This document shows, in pieces, positions 18,231 through 26,527 of a DNA stretch of 27,462 nt (positions within the stretch are counted from its first letter, which is position 1; each line of letters starts with the position of its first letter). The notes below the pieces were generated by a model, which did no database searches, was not told where the DNA came from, and saw only the letters and a list, made by a program, of their open reading frames with translations. The DNA comes from a virus. The position numbers and the translations under genes are program-made. The stretch lies in UHGV virus genome UHGV-1840938; one strand, 5' to 3'.

Positions 18231-18617
18231 ATGTTCATCAAACATGTGGTTATCAGCCTGCTCGGAAACAAATTCTACACCGGAAAAGACAAGGTCACGT
18301 TTGATTATGTGCTGGCTGCCAAATTGCGTGATGCCGGACTGGCGATCGAACGTAATTATCTGGTTGATATGGGCAACGGTAAGCGCGGATTCGTCGATAT
18401 CATGGTCGTTGCCCCATCTGGTGAACGGTGCGCGATCGAGGTGGACAGAGCGTCACCACGGGCACGTTCAATACTGAAACTGCGCAGACTCAAGCTATAC
18501 GGCATTCCTGGTATCGTGCTTCTGCGCTGTTCACGTAATCCGGATCAATACGTTAGCGATGAGATCGACGTGATCCCGGCAACGGGTAAATCACGTAGCA
18601 AGGGGGCGTCATGCTGA
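18231..18617 (+). CDS. Hypothetical protein
   Basis: 128-aa ORF immediately upstream of and overlapping the helicase gene start. Confidence 0.5.
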   Translation: MFIKHVVISLLGNKFYTGKDKVTFDYVLAAKLRDAGLAIERNYLVDMGNGKRGFVDIMVVAPSGERCAIEVDRASPRARSILKLRRLKLYGIPGIVLLRCSRNPDQYVSDEIDVIPATGKSRSKGASC

Positions 18618-20131
18618 AAATAATCCCAAACTTTGCTCAGGAGCGCGGTTTAAACCAGCTGCGGCACCAGTGGAAACAGCATCGCACGTACTTGATGTAC
18701 GCACCCACTGGCTCTGGCAAAACTGGTCTTGCAGCATTCGTCACCGCCGGAATGGTTGAACGTGGTATGCGGGTGATGTTTGTCTGTCCGTACACCATCC
18801 TGCTGAACCAGACAGCGGAACGTTTCACCGAATACGGTTTACCGTGGGAAGAAATCAGTTTTGTATGGCGTGATCACCCTAACTATGACCCGTCACGACT
18901 GATTCAGATTGCCAGTGCCGACACGCTGATCCGTCGTGAGTTTCCTGACAACATCGATCTGCTGATCATCGATGAAGCACACATGAAGCGTCGTGCGTTA
19001 CTTGAGGTTATCCGGGACAGAGACATCAGGGTTCTTGGACTTTCCGGCACCCCATTCGCAGCCTGGATGGGGAAGTACTACGAATGCCTGATCAAGCCTA
19101 CAACGATTCGTGAACTTATTCAGCGTGGTGATCTGAGCGATTACGAGTTTTTTGCCCCCTCAATGCCTGATCTGACTGGCGTAAAAACCAGTAACACCGT
19201 ATTTGGACGGGATTACAACGAGGAACAGCTCGCATCCATCATGGGGAGTTCGGATCTGGTTGGCGATATCGTTAGCAACTGGCTTGAGAATGGCGAGGAT
19301 TTACCGACGATCTGCTTCTGCGTGAACGTGGCTCATGCGAACTTTGTTACCCGTGAGTTTTTACAGTCTGGCATTGGCGCAGAGGTGATGACGGCAGATA
19401 CCCCCCATGATGAACGGCAGGATATCATTCGCCGTTTTGAAGATGGTGCGACCAAAATAATTGTCAACGTCGGCGTACTGGTTGCGGGATTTGACAGCGA
19501 TGTTCGCTGCCTGATCTACGCCCGTCCGACCAAATCAGAAATCCGCTGGTTGCAGTGCATCGGGAGAGCGTTACGTACTGCGTCTGGTAAAAAACGCGCA
19601 TTGATTTTCGACCATTCCGGTACGGTTCATCGGCTGGGCTTCCCCGAGGATATCGAGTATGACGAACTTCCGGGAAAAAATGACGGAATGAAAGCGTCTG
19701 CTGGCGGTGGCGAGGTTAAAGCTGAAAAACTTCCCAGAGAATGCCCCAAATGCCACTTCATGAAGCCTGCTGGTGTACACATGTGTCCCAAATGTGGATT
19801 TCGCCCACTTGGTGGTGATGACGTGGCGACAGATCGCGATCGTAAGCTTTCACGCGTCAACAAAGGGAAACGCGAATACACCCGTGAGGAAAAACAGCGT
19901 TGGTGGAGTGAGATCAAGGGTTATCAGAATTACCGCAACGCGACGGGTAAACCCCTGAGTGACGGATGGTGCGCTCATACCTACAAGGAGAAGTTCGGTG
20001 TGTGGCCTAAAGGCTTCAGTAATGCGCCGCTGCAAACCTCAGTTGAAGTGTACAACTTCATCAAGTCAAAGACCATTGCCTATGCCAAAGGGCGCAAGAA
20101 AGCCATGACAGGAGGCCAGCATGCAGACTAA
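18611..20131 (+). CDS. SF2 DEAD/DEAH-box-type helicase (phage replication helicase)
   Basis: Walker A YAPTGSGKT, DEAH-like IIDEAHM, later helicase motifs, C-terminal zinc-ribbon CPKCHF...CPKCG. Confidence 0.85.
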   Translation: MLKIIPNFAQERGLNQLRHQWKQHRTYLMYAPTGSGKTGLAAFVTAGMVERGMRVMFVCPYTILLNQTAERFTEYGLPWEEISFVWRDHPNYDPSRLIQIASADTLIRREFPDNIDLLIIDEAHMKRRALLEVIRDRDIRVLGLSGTPFAAWMGKYYECLIKPTTIRELIQRGDLSDYEFFAPSMPDLTGVKTSNTVFGRDYNEEQLASIMGSSDLVGDIVSNWLENGEDLPTICFCVNVAHANFVTREFLQSGIGAEVMTADTPHDERQDIIRRFEDGATKIIVNVGVLVAGFDSDVRCLIYARPTKSEIRWLQCIGRALRTASGKKRALIFDHSGTVHRLGFPEDIEYDELPGKNDGMKASAGGGEVKAEKLPRECPKCHFMKPAGVHMCPKCGFRPLGGDDVATDRDRKLSRVNKGKREYTREEKQRWWSEIKGYQNYRNATGKPLSDGWCAHTYKEKFGVWPKGFSNAPLQTSVEVYNFIKSKTIAYAKGRKKAMTGGQHAD

Positions 20132-22112: not shown

Positions 22113-22309
22113 CGTTCACCGTAAAAATCATTCCTGACATGCTTGTTGAGGCATATGGAAATCAGACCGAGGTGGCCCGAATACTGAACTGTAATCGTGC
22201 CACGGTCAGAAAATATATTGGCGATAAAGAAGGCAAACGGCACGCCGTCGTCAACGGTGTCCTTATGGTCCATCGTGGATGGGATAAGGGTAAAGACTCT
22301 GATGCGTGA
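22109..22309 (+). CDS. ninH: NinH-like protein
   Basis: [26 protein letters not shown]...VLMVHRGW closely resembles lambda NinH as recalled. Confidence 0.8.
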
Positions 22310-22727
22310 TATTCAGCAGGTGCTTGAACGCTGGGGCGCATGGGTGGCCAATAATCATGAGGATGTGAGCTGGTCGCCCATTGCCGCCGGATTTAAGGGG
22401 CTGATCCCGTCAAAGGTTAAATCACGGCCTCAGTGTACCGATGACGATGCGCTGATTATCAGCAATTGCATGGCGCAACTGAACGTCAACAACAGCGATT
22501 TGCATGATTTTCTGTATGATTATTATGTGTTCGGGATGACGCTTATGTCACTGGGCCGTAAGCATGGGCGCTCTGATTGCTGGGCCGGGCGGGTACTGCA
22601 AAAAGCAGAAGGTGTTATTGAGGGGATGTTGATCATGCAGGGAGTAAAGCTGGAAATGGACAGGTACGTTGAGCGTGAACCATCAGGATCACAGGCCAGT
22701 CAGTTTGCCGGACGTGCGGGAAATTGA
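22302..22727 (+). CDS. Q-family late antiterminator (QuuD-like); start at ATG 22302
   Basis: [45 protein letters not shown] closely resembles DLP12 QuuD-type Q proteins as recalled; overlaps ninH stop. Confidence 0.85.
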
Positions 22728-22751
22728 AAGCGCGAGTTTTTACTGTAGAAT
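22724..22751 (+). promoter_or_regulatory. Candidate late promoter (PR'-like) overlapping the Q stop
   Basis: TTGAAA at 22724..22729, 16-bp spacer, TAGAAT at 22746..22751. Confidence 0.4.
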
Positions 22752-22926
22752 AGCTGCGGGTGCTTGAGGCTGTCTGCCTCGGGCATGCAGCCGTAAGGCA
22801 GACAGAGAAAAGCCCCAGTTAACATTACGCGTCTTGCAGGACGCTTAACGTTAATCTGAGGCCAAATCTATGACTTACAAACTTAGGTTAGCCTCTTACG
22901 TGCCGAAAGGCAAGGAGAAGTAGGCT

Positions 22927-23082
22927 ATGAAGCAGCAAAAGGCGATGTTAATCGCCCTGATCGTCATCTGTATTACCGTCGTAGTGATAGCACTGGTAAC
23001 GAGGAAAGACTTCTGCGAGGTACGAATCCGAACCGGCCAGACGGAGGTCGCTGTCTTCGTAGACTACGAATCTGAGAAGTAA
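22927..23082 (+). CDS. Hok/Gef-family type I toxin (51 aa; absent from the ORF track)
   Basis: Translation MKQQKAMLIALIVICITVVVIALVTRKDFCEVRIRTGQTEVAVFVDYESEK has the transmembrane helix and the LTRK..CE.R...G..EVA.F..YES motif of Hok family; preceded by a 17-codon upstream ORF ending just before the ATG. Confidence 0.7.
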   Translation: MKQQKAMLIALIVICITVVVIALVTRKDFCEVRIRTGQTEVAVFVDYESEK

Positions 23083-23268
23083 GAGACCAGGCAGGGGAGT
23101 AATCTCCCGCCACCTCTGATGTGTCTGGCATCCTCAACGCACCCGTACTTTATTTGTCATATGCTCCGCAAAATGCAGGTTGTCGTTGCAACCAATGCGG
23201 TAATTTTTTGTGTGCGAGTGCTCAAAAAACGTTGATTTTCATAAAAGGATGATTTTATGCTGCCAGAC

Positions 23269-23317
23269 CAGCGACCAGCGACCAGCGACCAGCGACCAGC
23301 GACCAGCGACCAGCGAC
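23269..23317. repeat. Heptanucleotide tandem repeat (CAGCGAC)x7 between an ATG at 23257 and the large restriction-modification ORF
   Basis: Seven perfect copies counted directly; unit length 7 is not a multiple of 3. Confidence 0.95.
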
Positions 23318-23411
23318 CAGCAGTAAATCAAGAAAGTCTGTAAAATCTGTTGAGCCGGAAATTACCGAACTGGCGAACTCATGGCTTAAATCTTACAGGC
23401 TTGATTACAAG

Positions 23412-25373
23412 TTGCAGAATGCATCACTTAACGGAGAGATCGATAACGCACTGGACGCTTATTTTTCGAAAAATGGCGGCGCAGGCGGTAATCGTCCCGA
23501 CGTAAAACTCCTTGTTAAGGACAAATACGGCAAGCAGTATCCCGTTCTCATCGAGTATAAAGGCTACAAGGACAGGCTTATCAGACTTGGCAGCAACGGT
23601 ATTATTGAGAACAAAGATGCCAGAAAAGAATGGAATTTTAAAAATATTAATGGATACGCGGTGAATGGCGCAGTCCATTATGCCAACGCACTTCTTCAGT
23701 TCACCAATTACCCTGATATTATTGCTATTGGTATGACCGGCTGGCGCGATGATGGTACAGGCGAACTGCATCATGAAATCGGCGTGTGGTACGTATCAAA
23801 GAATAATTTAGGAGCCGGACAGAAGGTTGGTGAATTCACCGACTTATCGTTCCTTGCTGACAAAAATGTTGATGGATTTCTCAACAAGATAAAGCTGCTT
23901 AATCTTCCTCCCGAAGAACTGGAAAAAATCAAGGCCAGCAAAGAGGAAGAGATAGACACGCGACTTTCCCGTCTGAATAACGATATTTACCAGAATGAAA
24001 AGGGGCTTGGTGAAAGCGATCGTGTTTACCTTGTTGTGGCTACCGTTATTGCAACGTTGGGGATTCCGGGAAAGTTAGCACCGCTGGATAAAAAAGAACT
24101 GACCTCTTCAACGGAGGAGGACTTGCGTGATGGTGATATTATTTTCAGGAAAATAAGGAATTTTTTAAGGCTGAAAGCTGTTCCTGAAACAAAAAGAGAA
24201 ATGATTTTGCGCTCGTTGCAAAATACGCTGTGGACTGAAAACATTAACAAACCAGTCAACGGTGAAAGCCAGTTAAAGCGCGTGTTTGTTAAAGTTGTTG
24301 ATGATCTTGGGGAGTATTACAAAATTGGACTGACCACCGATTTTACGGGCAAACTGTTTAATGAGATGTATCGCTGGCTTGGATTTACGCAGGACAAGCT
24401 CAATGACGTCGTTCTGACACCACCTTATGTTGCCACATTGCTGGCACGACTCGCCAGAGTAAACAAAGATTCCTATGTGTGGGATTTTGCTACAGGTTCT
24501 GCGGGATTGCTTGTGGCTGCAATGAATGAAATGCTCATTGACGCCAGAGAAAATATTCACTCACCGAACGAACTACAACTTAAGGAAGCGCAAATCAAGG
24601 CTGAACAGCTTCTTGGCCTTGAGGTGTTATCCAGTATTTATATGCTGGCCATCCTGAATATGATTTTGATGGGGGATGGTAGCTCGAATATCCTCAATAA
24701 AGACTCGCTGGCCGATTTTGACGGCAAGTATGGATTTGGGAAAACAGGAGAAAAATTCCCTGCGGACGCATTTATTCTCAATCCTCCGTATTCAGCTAAA
24801 GGTAACGGCATGATTTTCGTGCAGAAGGCGCTGTCGATGATGGATAAAGGCTATGCTGCAGTGATTATCCAGAGTTCAGCTGGCACAGGAAAGGCTACGG
24901 AGTACAACAAAAAAATACTCAAGGAAAATACCTTGCTGGCAAGCATCAAAATGCCTGCGGATCTGTTTATTGGTAAATCAAGCGTTCAGACGTACATTTA
25001 CGTTTTTCAGGTAAAAATTCCGCATAACGCGAAACAGGCTGTTAAGTTTATCGACTTTTCCAATGACGGCTACGCTCGCTCTAATCGCAAAAAGGCAAGA
25101 AACAATCTTGTTGATGCCGATCGTGCAAAAGAGCGTTATCAGGAGGTTGTGGATCTGGTTCACTTCGGGAAAGGTTGCCTTAATATCTTTACGGAGGATG
25201 AATATTTTGAGGGAACAATCGATCCTGATAGTGGTGAGGACTGGAATCAGACCAGGCCAGTAGATGCTAGGCCAACGCTGGAGGATTTCAAAAAGACGGT
25301 AGGTGATTACCTTGCATGGGAGGTCTCGCAATTACTGAAAAAACAAGGTGAAAACAATTTTGCGGGAAAGTAA
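23412..25373 (+). CDS. Restriction-modification subunit: N-terminal PD-ExK-like region plus gamma-class N6-adenine methyltransferase (BcgI-A-like Type IIB/IIG candidate). The open frame extends upstream to 23253 through the repeat tract.
   Basis: Methyltransferase motif I VLTPPYVATLL...VWDFATGSAGLL and motif IV FILNPPYSAKG; N-terminal RPDVKLLVKDKYGKQYPVLIEYK fits a PD...ExK nuclease motif; the only start at the head of the ORF is a TTG with weak RBS, and the first in-frame ATG is far downstream. Confidence 0.85.
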   Translation: MQNASLNGEIDNALDAYFSKNGGAGGNRPDVKLLVKDKYGKQYPVLIEYKGYKDRLIRLGSNGIIENKDARKEWNFKNINGYAVNGAVHYANALLQFTNYPDIIAIGMTGWRDDGTGELHHEIGVWYVSKNNLGAGQKVGEFTDLSFLADKNVDGFLNKIKLLNLPPEELEKIKASKEEEIDTRLSRLNNDIYQNEKGLGESDRVYLVVATVIATLGIPGKLAPLDKKELTSSTEEDLRDGDIIFRKIRNFLRLKAVPETKREMILRSLQNTLWTENINKPVNGESQLKRVFVKVVDDLGEYYKIGLTTDFTGKLFNEMYRWLGFTQDKLNDVVLTPPYVATLLARLARVNKDSYVWDFATGSAGLLVAAMNEMLIDARENIHSPNELQLKEAQIKAEQLLGLEVLSSIYMLAILNMILMGDGSSNILNKDSLADFDGKYGFGKTGEKFPADAFILNPPYSAKGNGMIFVQKALSMMDKGYAAVIIQSSAGTGKATEYNKKILKENTLLASIKMPADLFIGKSSVQTYIYVFQVKIPHNAKQAVKFIDFSNDGYARSNRKKARNNLVDADRAKERYQEVVDLVHFGKGCLNIFTEDEYFEGTIDPDSGEDWNQTRPVDARPTLEDFKKTVGDYLAWEVSQLLKKQGENNFAGK

Positions 25374-25432
25374 ATTCCCCGCTCAGCGATAAATTAAGAA
25401 GCGTTGAGTGGGGAGAGTTCAGGATTGGCGAT

Positions 25433-26527
25433 TTGTTCTATGTGAGCACAGGCTCGCTTATCTCCTCAGGAAGATTAAAACCAGGCAAAATCAAACGTGT
25501 TTCAGCAAAGAGCGATCAAAACGGTATCATCGGAGAGTTTGATACCGAGTTTATGGATGATGCAAGACATTATGAAAATTTTATAAGCGTTAATTTTTTT
25601 GGAGATGCTTTTTATCATCCTTATTGTGCCAGCGTAGAAATGAAGGTGCATGTTCTTACATTAAAATCAAGTAAGTCCGACTTTAATGCAAAGCGCGGAC
25701 TGTATGTTGCCAGTATGATTAATAAAGCTTTAAAGGGGCGTTTTAATTATGGTCAACAGTTATCGAGTTCCAAACTCAGAGATGGAGAATATTTCATCTC
25801 ATTACCAGTGAAAAATAATGAAATTGACTGGTTTTTTATGGATAATTATATAGAAGAGCTGGAAGCGGCCCATATAGAAGAGCTGGAAGCATACCTGATA
25901 GCTGCTGGGCTGAGTGATTACCAACTAACGGAAAAAGATTATCTTATCCTGGAACATTTTAAAAATATTGAATTTTCAGGCTTTCCTGTTACTGAGTTAT
26001 TCTCAGTGTGCAATACAGGAAACATATTGTCTAGAGACATCATAGAAAATAGTGGGGATGTTCCTTATCTTTGTGCTAGCCGTGATAATAACTCTGTTAG
26101 TTCTTATATCGCCTATGATGACTCACTCTTGGAAAAAGGGAACTGTATTTTTATTGGTGGTAAGACATTCGTTGTAACTTATCAGGAGCGAGACTTTTTT
26201 TCAAACGACAGTCATAATTTGCGACTCTATGTTAACAATGAGGATGGAAGGACAAAGTTTGCTTATTTGGGCATTATTTCATGTATTTATAGGTCTATTT
26301 CACATAAATATTCATGGGGGGATAGTGTTAGTAATAGAAAAATTAAGAACGATGTTATTTGGTTGCCAGTGAAAAATAAGTCACCTGACTTTTGTTATAT
26401 AAATGACCTTATTTCAGTTGTTCATAAGCTTGTCATTAAAGATGTTGTCCAGTACGCAGAACGCAAAATGAACGCATACAGGCAAGCTATAACAAGTCGC
26501 GGTTATGATGATTCTGGTGTCAGTTAA
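25433..26527 (+). CDS. Specificity (S) subunit with two target-recognition domains (HsdS/BcgI-B-like)
   Basis: Two repeated TRD-leading motifs (RIGDLFYVSTGSLISSG... and PVTELFSVCNTGNILSR...), central IEELEA repeats; TTG start with AGGA RBS; very AT-rich. Confidence 0.8.
   Translation: MFYVSTGSLISSGRLKPGKIKRVSAKSDQNGIIGEFDTEFMDDARHYENFISVNFFGDAFYHPYCASVEMKVHVLTLKSSKSDFNAKRGLYVASMINKALKGRFNYGQQLSSSKLRDGEYFISLPVKNNEIDWFFMDNYIEELEAAHIEELEAYLIAAGLSDYQLTEKDYLILEHFKNIEFSGFPVTELFSVCNTGNILSRDIIENSGDVPYLCASRDNNSVSSYIAYDDSLLEKGNCIFIGGKTFVVTYQERDFFSNDSHNLRLYVNNEDGRTKFAYLGIISCIYRSISHKYSWGDSVSNRKIKNDVIWLPVKNKSPDFCYINDLISVVHKLVIKDVVQYAERKMNAYRQAITSRGYDDSGVS
25850..25897. repeat. 24-bp tandem duplication in the central spacer region of the S subunit (encodes IEELEAAH / IEELEAYL)
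   Basis: ATAGAAGAGCTGGAAGC appears twice at a 24-bp period (25850 and 25874). Confidence 0.9.

Follow-up and report, generated by a model that had tools for sequence, protein, structure and literature searches.

A hypermutable heptanucleotide tract probably phase-varies a type IIB restriction-modification system carried by lambdoid prophages of Escherichia coli

Escherichia coli is usually seen as poor in repeat-based contingency loci. One described case is M.Eco131I, the phase-variable type III mod of Shiga-toxigenic E. coli (STEC), which carries a CAGCGAC[n] tract (Atack et al. 2018, PMC5909438) and for which fragment-length analysis found several tract lengths within cultures (PMC5909438). 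Another, long established and called a 'mobile contingency locus', is neuO of the E. coli K1 prophage CUS-3, whose (AAGACTC)n tract lets the gene be expressed only at multiples of 3 units and is translated into an N-terminal heptad repeat; NeuO activity rises with repeat number, and the heptads make up a 'poly-psi' domain (PMC8653822). In Campylobacter jejuni, Cj0031 is a phase-variable type IIG enzyme (PMC4889913), and a survey of phase variation in type I systems makes no mention of E. coli in its main text (PMC7383803). Here we examine a locus in the virus genome UHGV-1840938, a stretch of 27,462 nucleotides (nt) that we refer to as a whole as the window. In it, a perfect tract of GACCAGC heptamers separates a start codon from the body of a restriction-methylase (RM) gene, and we consider it likely that this tract serves as the hypermutable part of a switch by which a prophage type IIB restriction-modification system phase-varies at the level of translation. 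The start region contains the following features.

23213..23265, + strand: leader of the switch, about 45 nt of upstream sequence plus ATG-CTG-CCA, from alignment with plasmid pOkiPb01677_2 and with diverged alleles
23222-23256, + strand: imperfect 17-nt duplication within the leader (Tandem Repeats Finder)
23246..23250, + strand: Shine-Dalgarno sequence AAGGA, 6 nt 5' of ATG 23257 (from the sequence)
23249..23251, + strand: further ATG, belonging to the third frame; joined in frame to the gene at n = 1 mod 3 units
23257..23259, + strand: start codon ATG of the restriction-methylase; in frame with the gene only at n = 0 mod 3 units
23266..23321, + strand: perfect tract (GACCAGC)x8, which is CAGCGAC in another phase (Tandem Repeats Finder)
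23322..25373, + strand: body of the restriction-methylase (type IIB/IIG alpha subunit), with its stop at 25371-25373 (PADLOC, Pfam, Foldseek)
23324..23326, + strand: TAA that closes the ATG 23249 frame (open reading frame 23210..23326), and also the ATG 23257 frame if n = 1 mod 3
23341..23343, + strand: TAA that closes the ATG 23257 frame in the window (n = 2 mod 3); kept in diverged alleles
23412..23414, + strand: TTG, the start called by PGAP (653 amino acids (aa), WP_001178557.1), probably an annotation fallback

Tandem Repeats Finder places the tract at 23266-23321 with a period of 7, 8.0 copies, 100% matches and a score of 112. The initial annotation of this DNA had counted seven CAGCGAC units here; the tract is indeed present and perfect, and the count is eight GACCAGC units, the same 56 bp read in another phase. 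It begins 9 nt after ATG 23257, has no stop in any of the six frames and is translated on the + strand as the peptide repeat DQRPATS, and the conserved N-terminus of the protein family begins 8 codons past it. The sequence and the list of open reading frames (ORFs) bear out the earlier description of the frames. ATG 23257, preceded by AAGGA, opens a frame that reads through the tract and ends after 28 codons at TAA 23341-23343 (ORF 23257..23343), while the large ORF lies in the adjacent frame, opens at 23253 after TGA 23250-23252 and has no in-frame ATG 5' of the repeat; neither ATG nor GTG occurs in it before TTG 23412.

We propose that translation would start at ATG 23257 behind AAGGA and read through (GACCAGC)n. 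Slipped-strand mispairing at replication would add or remove 7-bp units, each of them shifting the downstream frame by one. Only at n = 0 mod 3 would the full enzyme be made, with an N-terminal (DQRPATS)n/3 extension, and in the other two frames translation would terminate at TAA 23324 or TAA 23341. As a single polypeptide carries both activities, the off states would lack restriction and methylation alike, and switching would be reversible within a clone. The benefit, to the lysogen or to the phage, may be one of bet-hedging, in which the exclusion of phages and plasmids is traded against enzyme cost or self-toxicity, with possible epigenetic side effects.

Among the described systems, the mod gene of M.Eco131I is strikingly close in its start region: it has the identical unit, the ATG-CTG-CCA start and the MLPDQRPATS... 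peptide, and its tract too varies between strains. The two genes are nevertheless different, as M.Eco131I is a type III Mod protein that works with a Res helicase and is encoded on a plasmid, whereas the window encodes a type IIB nuclease-methylase with an S subunit on a lambdoid prophage. The primers of Atack et al. have no match in the window, which is therefore not the published mod locus, and their forward primer had no match in a scan of IMG/VR either. We located the type III mod locus on mobilisable or conjugative plasmids of 92-117 kb, adjoining mobA/relaxase and trbC. On E. coli plasmids the mod gene is preceded by the same leader, ATGCTGCCA and (GACCAGC)n; in pOkiPb01677_2 (L054 6035-6088) the leader is homologous over ~45 nt and followed by 35 units, in frame. 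When the window is compared with this plasmid and with diverged alleles, similarity extends from about -45 to the tract, and the sequences further upstream are unrelated. The RM gene itself had no copy in the plasmid collection searched.

The shared leader suggests a switch cassette that is exchangeable between defence genes, and a statement that one switch module sits on two unrelated restriction-modification genes was not found in the literature searched. ATGCTGCCA followed by three units occurred in none of 100,044 species-representative genomes; going by such searches, the cassette is rare outside the E. coli and Salmonella strains sampled elsewhere. A protein search with pure DQRPATS returned 7 weak matches only, one of which (P0121) lies before an alpha-amylase gene on an unrelated metagenome contig. 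In JGI metagenome 3300027985 (L056 369-470), ATGCTTGCC(GACCAGC)n with ~14 units heads a 96-aa ORF upstream of alpha-amylase; the heptamer on the alpha-amylase contig may be there by chance, or the cassette may have been put to use a third time.

The neuO gene resembles the window gene in being borne by an E. coli prophage and in carrying a heptanucleotide at the 5' coding end, in tens of copies, that encodes an N-terminal heptad. It differs in its unit, shows no sequence relation, encodes a capsule O-acetyltransferase and has 14-39 units, compared with up to 120 here. Cj0031 and the phase-variable type I and type III systems (phasevarions) of Haemophilus, Neisseria, Moraxella and Helicobacter share with the window a coding-region repeat that switches a methylase or a fused restriction-methylase. 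In those systems, however, the repeats are homopolymers or units of 2-5 nt, and the genes are chromosomal and belong to host-adapted pathogens with small genomes; the window has a 7-nt unit, a very long tract and a temperate phage of E. coli as its carrier. BcgI and BsaXI share the enzyme architecture of the window system, with an N-terminal nuclease joined to a gamma-class N6-adenine methylase (NPPY) and a separate HsdS-like subunit with two target-recognition domains, and depositors name homologues of the window protein 'BcgI alpha chain-like'. We know of no 5' repeat switch for BcgI or BsaXI. The window also departs from these two in its S ORF, which has no start codon and lies behind a candidate -1 frameshift signal.

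The initial annotation had presented repeat-based switching as not described for a system borne by a lambdoid prophage. This was overstated, given the CAGCGAC[n] mod gene (PMC5909438) and neuO on CUS-3 (PMC8653822). Because the same repeat and the same principle have been published, the novelty of the locus is modest; what makes it more interesting are the shared cassette, the great length of the tracts, the prophage type IIB context and the frameshift signal.

The strongest evidence for a switch comes from the comparison of natural alleles. The gene is carried by about 30 of 5,426 complete E. coli genomes, and 26 of these were retrieved. Their tracts range from 16 to 120 units, with a median of about 69, and are perfect in 19 genomes and almost perfect in the others. 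Nine genomes whose flanks are identical (100% over 450 bp upstream and 2,050 bp downstream) have 31, 56, 58, 64, 73, 76, 79, 83 and 83 units, and a second set of four genomes with identical flanks has 65, 83, 93 and 99. Repeat number thus changes far faster than the flanking sequence. All three frames are occupied, to a similar extent: ATG 23257 is in frame with the gene in 6 genomes, ATG 23249 in 9 and neither in 11. The in-frame alleles (n = 54, 66, 99 and 120) have ORFs of 812-966 aa from ATG 23257, compared with 42-220 aa for out-of-frame alleles. These natural fusions match the arithmetic proposed earlier, by which a gain of one unit or a loss of two would join ATG 23257 to the gene, and which the count of eight leaves unchanged. 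The locus is also present at 100% identity in phage PhiR12_3 (from ECOR13), where its span implies 83 units, and enterobacterial in-frame alleles with as few as ~3 units occur (P0004, P0017).

The signals around the tract are kept while its length changes. AAGGA is retained in all 26 genomes and in diverged alleles (85-87% identity); the latter also keep ATG-CTG-CCA, a perfect tract and both out-of-frame stops, including TAA 23324 directly 3' of the tract. Copy number had been named as the thing to compare between homologous loci, and the comparison gives 16-120 units, all three frames, and differences of tens of units at identical flanks. The architecture of slipped-strand phase variation that had been read from the window alone is thus supported by length polymorphism, frame occupancy, conserved signals and purifying selection. 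Judged by its alleles, the locus behaves as a simple-sequence-repeat contingency locus that is hypermutable between strains. Such 5' heptamers may recur within this gene lineage: a 72%-identical metagenome homologue (Logan SRR18824222, L055 752-790) has (AACAGCC)x3 directly after its ATG, behind a similar leader.

The copy number in the window itself is probably an artefact. None of the 26 complete genomes has fewer than 16 units, compared with 8 in the window. Where draft assemblies of IMG/VR span the tract, they show 9-34 units (about 102 in one case), and about half of the draft contigs with the locus start or stop inside the tract. Among multiples of 7, the 56 bp of the window tract is the first that is not below 55, and k = 55 is a common assembler k-mer size. 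For the same repeat in the mod gene, short-read assemblies were found to be collapsed, and deposited short-read sequences always understated the tract (Atack et al. 2018, PMC5909438). The 8-unit tract is therefore probably the product of assembly collapse, perhaps at this k-mer size, and since it probably is, the OFF state read from the window is uninformative and the true state uncertain. More generally, short-read assemblies collapse or break at the tract, and pipelines mis-call the gene, either as a TTG-truncated 'HsdM' or through spurious minus-strand proteins. Such minus-strand proteins are annotated across the tract as 'YXWGXW repeat-containing protein', 'hypothetical protein' or 'EmrB/QacA' (L001-L026, L057).

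Tract length could do more than turn the gene on and off. Output might be graded, either through three levels set by a strong ATG 23257, a weak ATG 23249 and no start, or through an effect of the length of the DQRPATS extension on activity or stability. Two ATGs do lie in two frames upstream of the tract, and the tracts, with their median of about 69 units, far exceed the needs of a binary switch. Graded expression from several start codons in different frames is known from lic1 of Haemophilus influenzae, and the rise of NeuO activity with repeat number (PMC8653822) points the same way. We nevertheless regard grading as rather unlikely. ATG 23249 is abutted directly by AAGG and lacks a properly spaced Shine-Dalgarno sequence, is changed to ATA in strain 48 and L035, and is absent from the type III mod leader; it is doubtful that it serves as a weak second initiator, although some pipelines call proteins from it (starting MILCCQTSDQRPATS...; P0005, P0010). 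The in-frame alleles of ~3 units, in turn, mean that a full-length product can be encoded without a long extension.

A start at ATG 23257 means that translation must cross the repeat. PGAP places the start at TTG 23412 instead, because there is no in-frame ATG, and its 653-aa model (WP_001178557.1) is found in nearly all genomes regardless of tract length; moreover, in 20 of the 26 genomes ATG 23257 does not share the gene's frame, and the gene is still intact. These observations would be expected if the tract lay in an untranslated leader and the enzyme were made from TTG 23412, with the repeat at most modulating the length or stability of the transcript. We consider this improbable, because the sequence upstream of TTG 23412 looks protein-coding. 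Over 100 homologues that lack the repeat, found at ~72% identity in Neisseria, Providencia, Methylophilaceae and many metagenomes, start with an ATG near the same place, 20-30 residues upstream of the position of TTG 23412. Their N-terminus consists of Met, 2-12 variable residues and then S[IV]EPNIADLANGWLKSY (S[IV]EPNIADLANGWLKSYxLDYKL). This S[IV]EPxIAxLANGWLKSY block, conserved across genera and lying just after the ATG of the homologues, is encoded in the window between the tract and TTG 23412. It is covered by the PADLOC profile, which aligns from residue 10, and corresponds to the first helix (11-24) and a strand (29-31) of the confident N-terminal domain in the predicted model. Over the 30 codons before TTG, synonymous change exceeds non-synonymous change (pS 0.54 vs pN 0.13). 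No correctly spaced Shine-Dalgarno sequence precedes TTG 23412 in the window, and the stops of both alternative frames stand directly after the tract. Efficient initiation at TTG 23412, which the initial annotation had raised against its own proposal, is therefore unlikely.

Full-length proteins that begin MLPDQRPATS... have been deposited (P0004, P0006, P0009), and public protein sets contain MLPDQRPATSDQRPATS.... On the strength of the conserved block and the start signals, the native start is probably ATG 23257, and the TTG model probably an annotation fallback. In two Neisseria homologues, P0097 and P0046, in-frame KSN repeats differ near the N-terminus (MTQASKKSNKSNKSNKS vs MTQASKKSNKS), and this polymorphism sits at the position equivalent to the E. 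coli tract.

The protein encoded by the body of the gene has at its N-terminus a PD-(D/E)XK-like nuclease (RPD...IEYK), which a helical linker connects to an N6-adenine methyltransferase bearing NPPY. Its best profile match is PADLOC REase_MTase_IIG (PDLC03616; E = 3.4e-232, residues 10-675). Pfam detects N6_Mtase (E = 5.5e-21) and, below threshold, VRR_NUC at the N-terminus, and an alignment of 27 homologues shows no variation in either RPD...IEYK or NPPY. Built from a shallow alignment, the AlphaFold model reaches a moderate mean pLDDT of 69.7 and has a confident N-terminal alpha/beta domain. A sequence search against the PDB gave no match for the restriction-methylase. Foldseek gave matches to HsdM and full-length matches to BsaXI (type IIB) and BpuSI (type IIG); those to BsaXI chains have E-values of 5e-8 to 2e-6 over 635-729 columns, with TM scores of only 0.27-0.30 for a model of moderate quality. 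The partner ORF contains Pfam Methylase_S in 2 stretches (E = 2.6e-24) and matches PADLOC Specificity_II. By domain content the system is a BcgI/BsaXI-like type IIB restriction-modification system with a separate S subunit, which would be expected to cut on either side of a bipartite site. A type I system, as implied by the PGAP name 'HsdM family', was rejected: no HsdR-like ORF adjoins the pair and the M-like protein has its own N-terminal nuclease. The helicase at 18611-20131 belongs with a primase to the phage replication module.

That the gene is a decaying pseudogene and its repeat a neutrally expanding microsatellite is extremely unlikely: most alleles are out of frame, and annotators do call a truncated methylase together with spurious minus-strand 'YXWGXW repeat' ORFs, but all 26 genomes have the 2.05 kb ORF intact and with hardly any variation, the ratio of non-synonymous to synonymous substitution (dN/dS) between repeat-bearing alleles is about 0.05 at saturated dS (1.3-1.5), the S gene and the junction signals are conserved, the ATG and its Shine-Dalgarno sequence are present in every allele, and in-frame alleles are common.

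Several points weigh against a translational switch that crosses the tract. Only 6 of the 26 genomes are in the ATG 23257 frame, and nine are in that of the weak ATG 23249. The interrupted tracts of some genomes may be long-read errors, in which case individual frame calls would shift. Initiation at TTG 23412 may occur at a low level. Long tracts would lengthen the N-terminus of the nuclease by as many as 280 repeat residues, and that the enzyme tolerates them is assumed by analogy with NeuO. Finally, a promoter scan found no promoter between hok, the upstream neighbour, and ATG 23257. A TTGATT-17-TATGCT match picked out by eye was set aside, as transcription from it would begin inside the tract.

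We next consider how the S subunit is made, since the answer bears on what a switch at ATG 23257 would control. The features at the junction of the two genes, and one within S, are as follows.

25364..25370, + strand: canonical -1 slippery heptamer G GGA AAG, read in the RM phase, with the RM stop immediately after it (sequence, homologue comparison)
25370..26527, + strand: S subunit ORF, in the -1 frame of RM (Pfam Methylase_S, PADLOC Specificity_II, junction analysis)
25376..25414, + strand: 13-bp hairpin, 5 nt after the heptamer, a putative frameshift stimulator (folding, covariation)
25850..25901, + strand: 24-bp tandem repeat, 2.2 copies, in the central spacer of S (Tandem Repeats Finder)

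The S frame opens at 25352 and has no ATG, GTG or TTG before TTG 25433, which is followed by GTG 25442. The Methylase_S domain starts upstream of both, near 25403, which is residue 11 when translation is begun at 25373. The last codons of the RM frame are GCG GGA AAG TAA, so the heptamer is read just before the stop. In a comparison of nine taxonomically diverse homologues, eight carry G GGA AAR at this place and the ninth carries A AAA AAG, which is also the heptamer of the diverged E. coli alleles. The hairpin in the window has a minimum free energy of -23.3 kcal/mol (z = -6.8), and a 12-13 bp hairpin after 5-6 nt is present in 9/9 homologues, with z from -4.5 to -6.8. Across the hairpin alignment, 89.7% of cells are paired, compared with 37-52% when partners are slid; three pairs show compensatory changes, and the covariation score was reached by 0/500 shuffles. 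Natural in-frame RM-S fusions occur among more distant homologues.

S is thus probably made as an RM-S fusion by programmed -1 frameshifting, to judge from these conserved signals. Termination-reinitiation is less likely, as 8/9 homologues have GTA or ATA where a start codon would overlap the stop and 1/9 has ATG, and a TGA stop, which would create an overlapping ATG or GTG, is used only once among the nine. No description of programmed frameshifting in restriction-modification systems was found in the literature searched. Since S has no start codon of its own and is apparently made by frameshifting, one switch would gate R, M and S together. The 'split or partial S subunit' called by PGAP in some genomes was considered as a second switch and rejected, because the sequences are identical to those of genomes annotated with an intact S.

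Combining the two ends of the gene, we see about even chances that the leader, ATG-CTG-CCA and (GACCAGC)n form a portable cassette, placed on type III mod in plasmids and on the type IIB system in lambdoid prophages, that its ATG is the sole start of the prophage system, and that S is reached through the conserved -1 frameshift. A DNA-slippage switch and an RNA-slippage site would then stand in series.

The 24-bp repeat within S varies as well: SCU-104 and JNEC-KY173 have a third in-frame copy (+8 aa). In EcoR124I/II, the number of spacer repeats in S provides a precedent for differences in recognition-site spacing. By analogy, 24-bp copy number could alter the length of the spacer in the recognition site here.

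The locus would be the third clear repeat contingency locus of E. coli, after neuO and STEC type III mod, and all three use 7-nt units. Mismatch repair in E. coli is limited to loops of about 4 nt, and 7-nt loops escape it. This escape may explain why heptamers are found in all three cases. The locus would also put stochastic on/off control on a defence system that is carried by a phage, at the position after Q that is occupied by the toxin genes in Shiga toxin (Stx) phages. If this is true, populations of lysogens would be mixed with respect to restriction and methylation, and superinfection, plasmid uptake and methylome typing would be affected.

The position after Q is seen from the genes upstream of the switch.

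22197-22727, + strand: antiterminator Q (Pfam Phage_antitermQ)
22724-22751, + strand: late-promoter-like site (promoter scan)
22758-23082, + strand: sok/hok module (Rfam sok, PGAP annotation of identical loci)

The RM-S pair directly follows Q and hok, which is a cargo position of lambdoid prophages, and Stx phages carry their toxin genes at this position. The RM-S system thus appears, from gene order, to be conserved lambdoid-phage cargo across genera. In Providencia alcalifaciens GCA_051693905.1 (L059 1-6933), a repeat-free homologue of the pair occupies the corresponding place in a prophage, in the order helicase, primase, antiterminator, RM, S and holins. The Rfam sok match in the window (22758-22932, 119 bits) overlaps the hok leader, and downstream of S an Rfam match to the small RNA STnc100 lies at 26714-26930 (149 bits).

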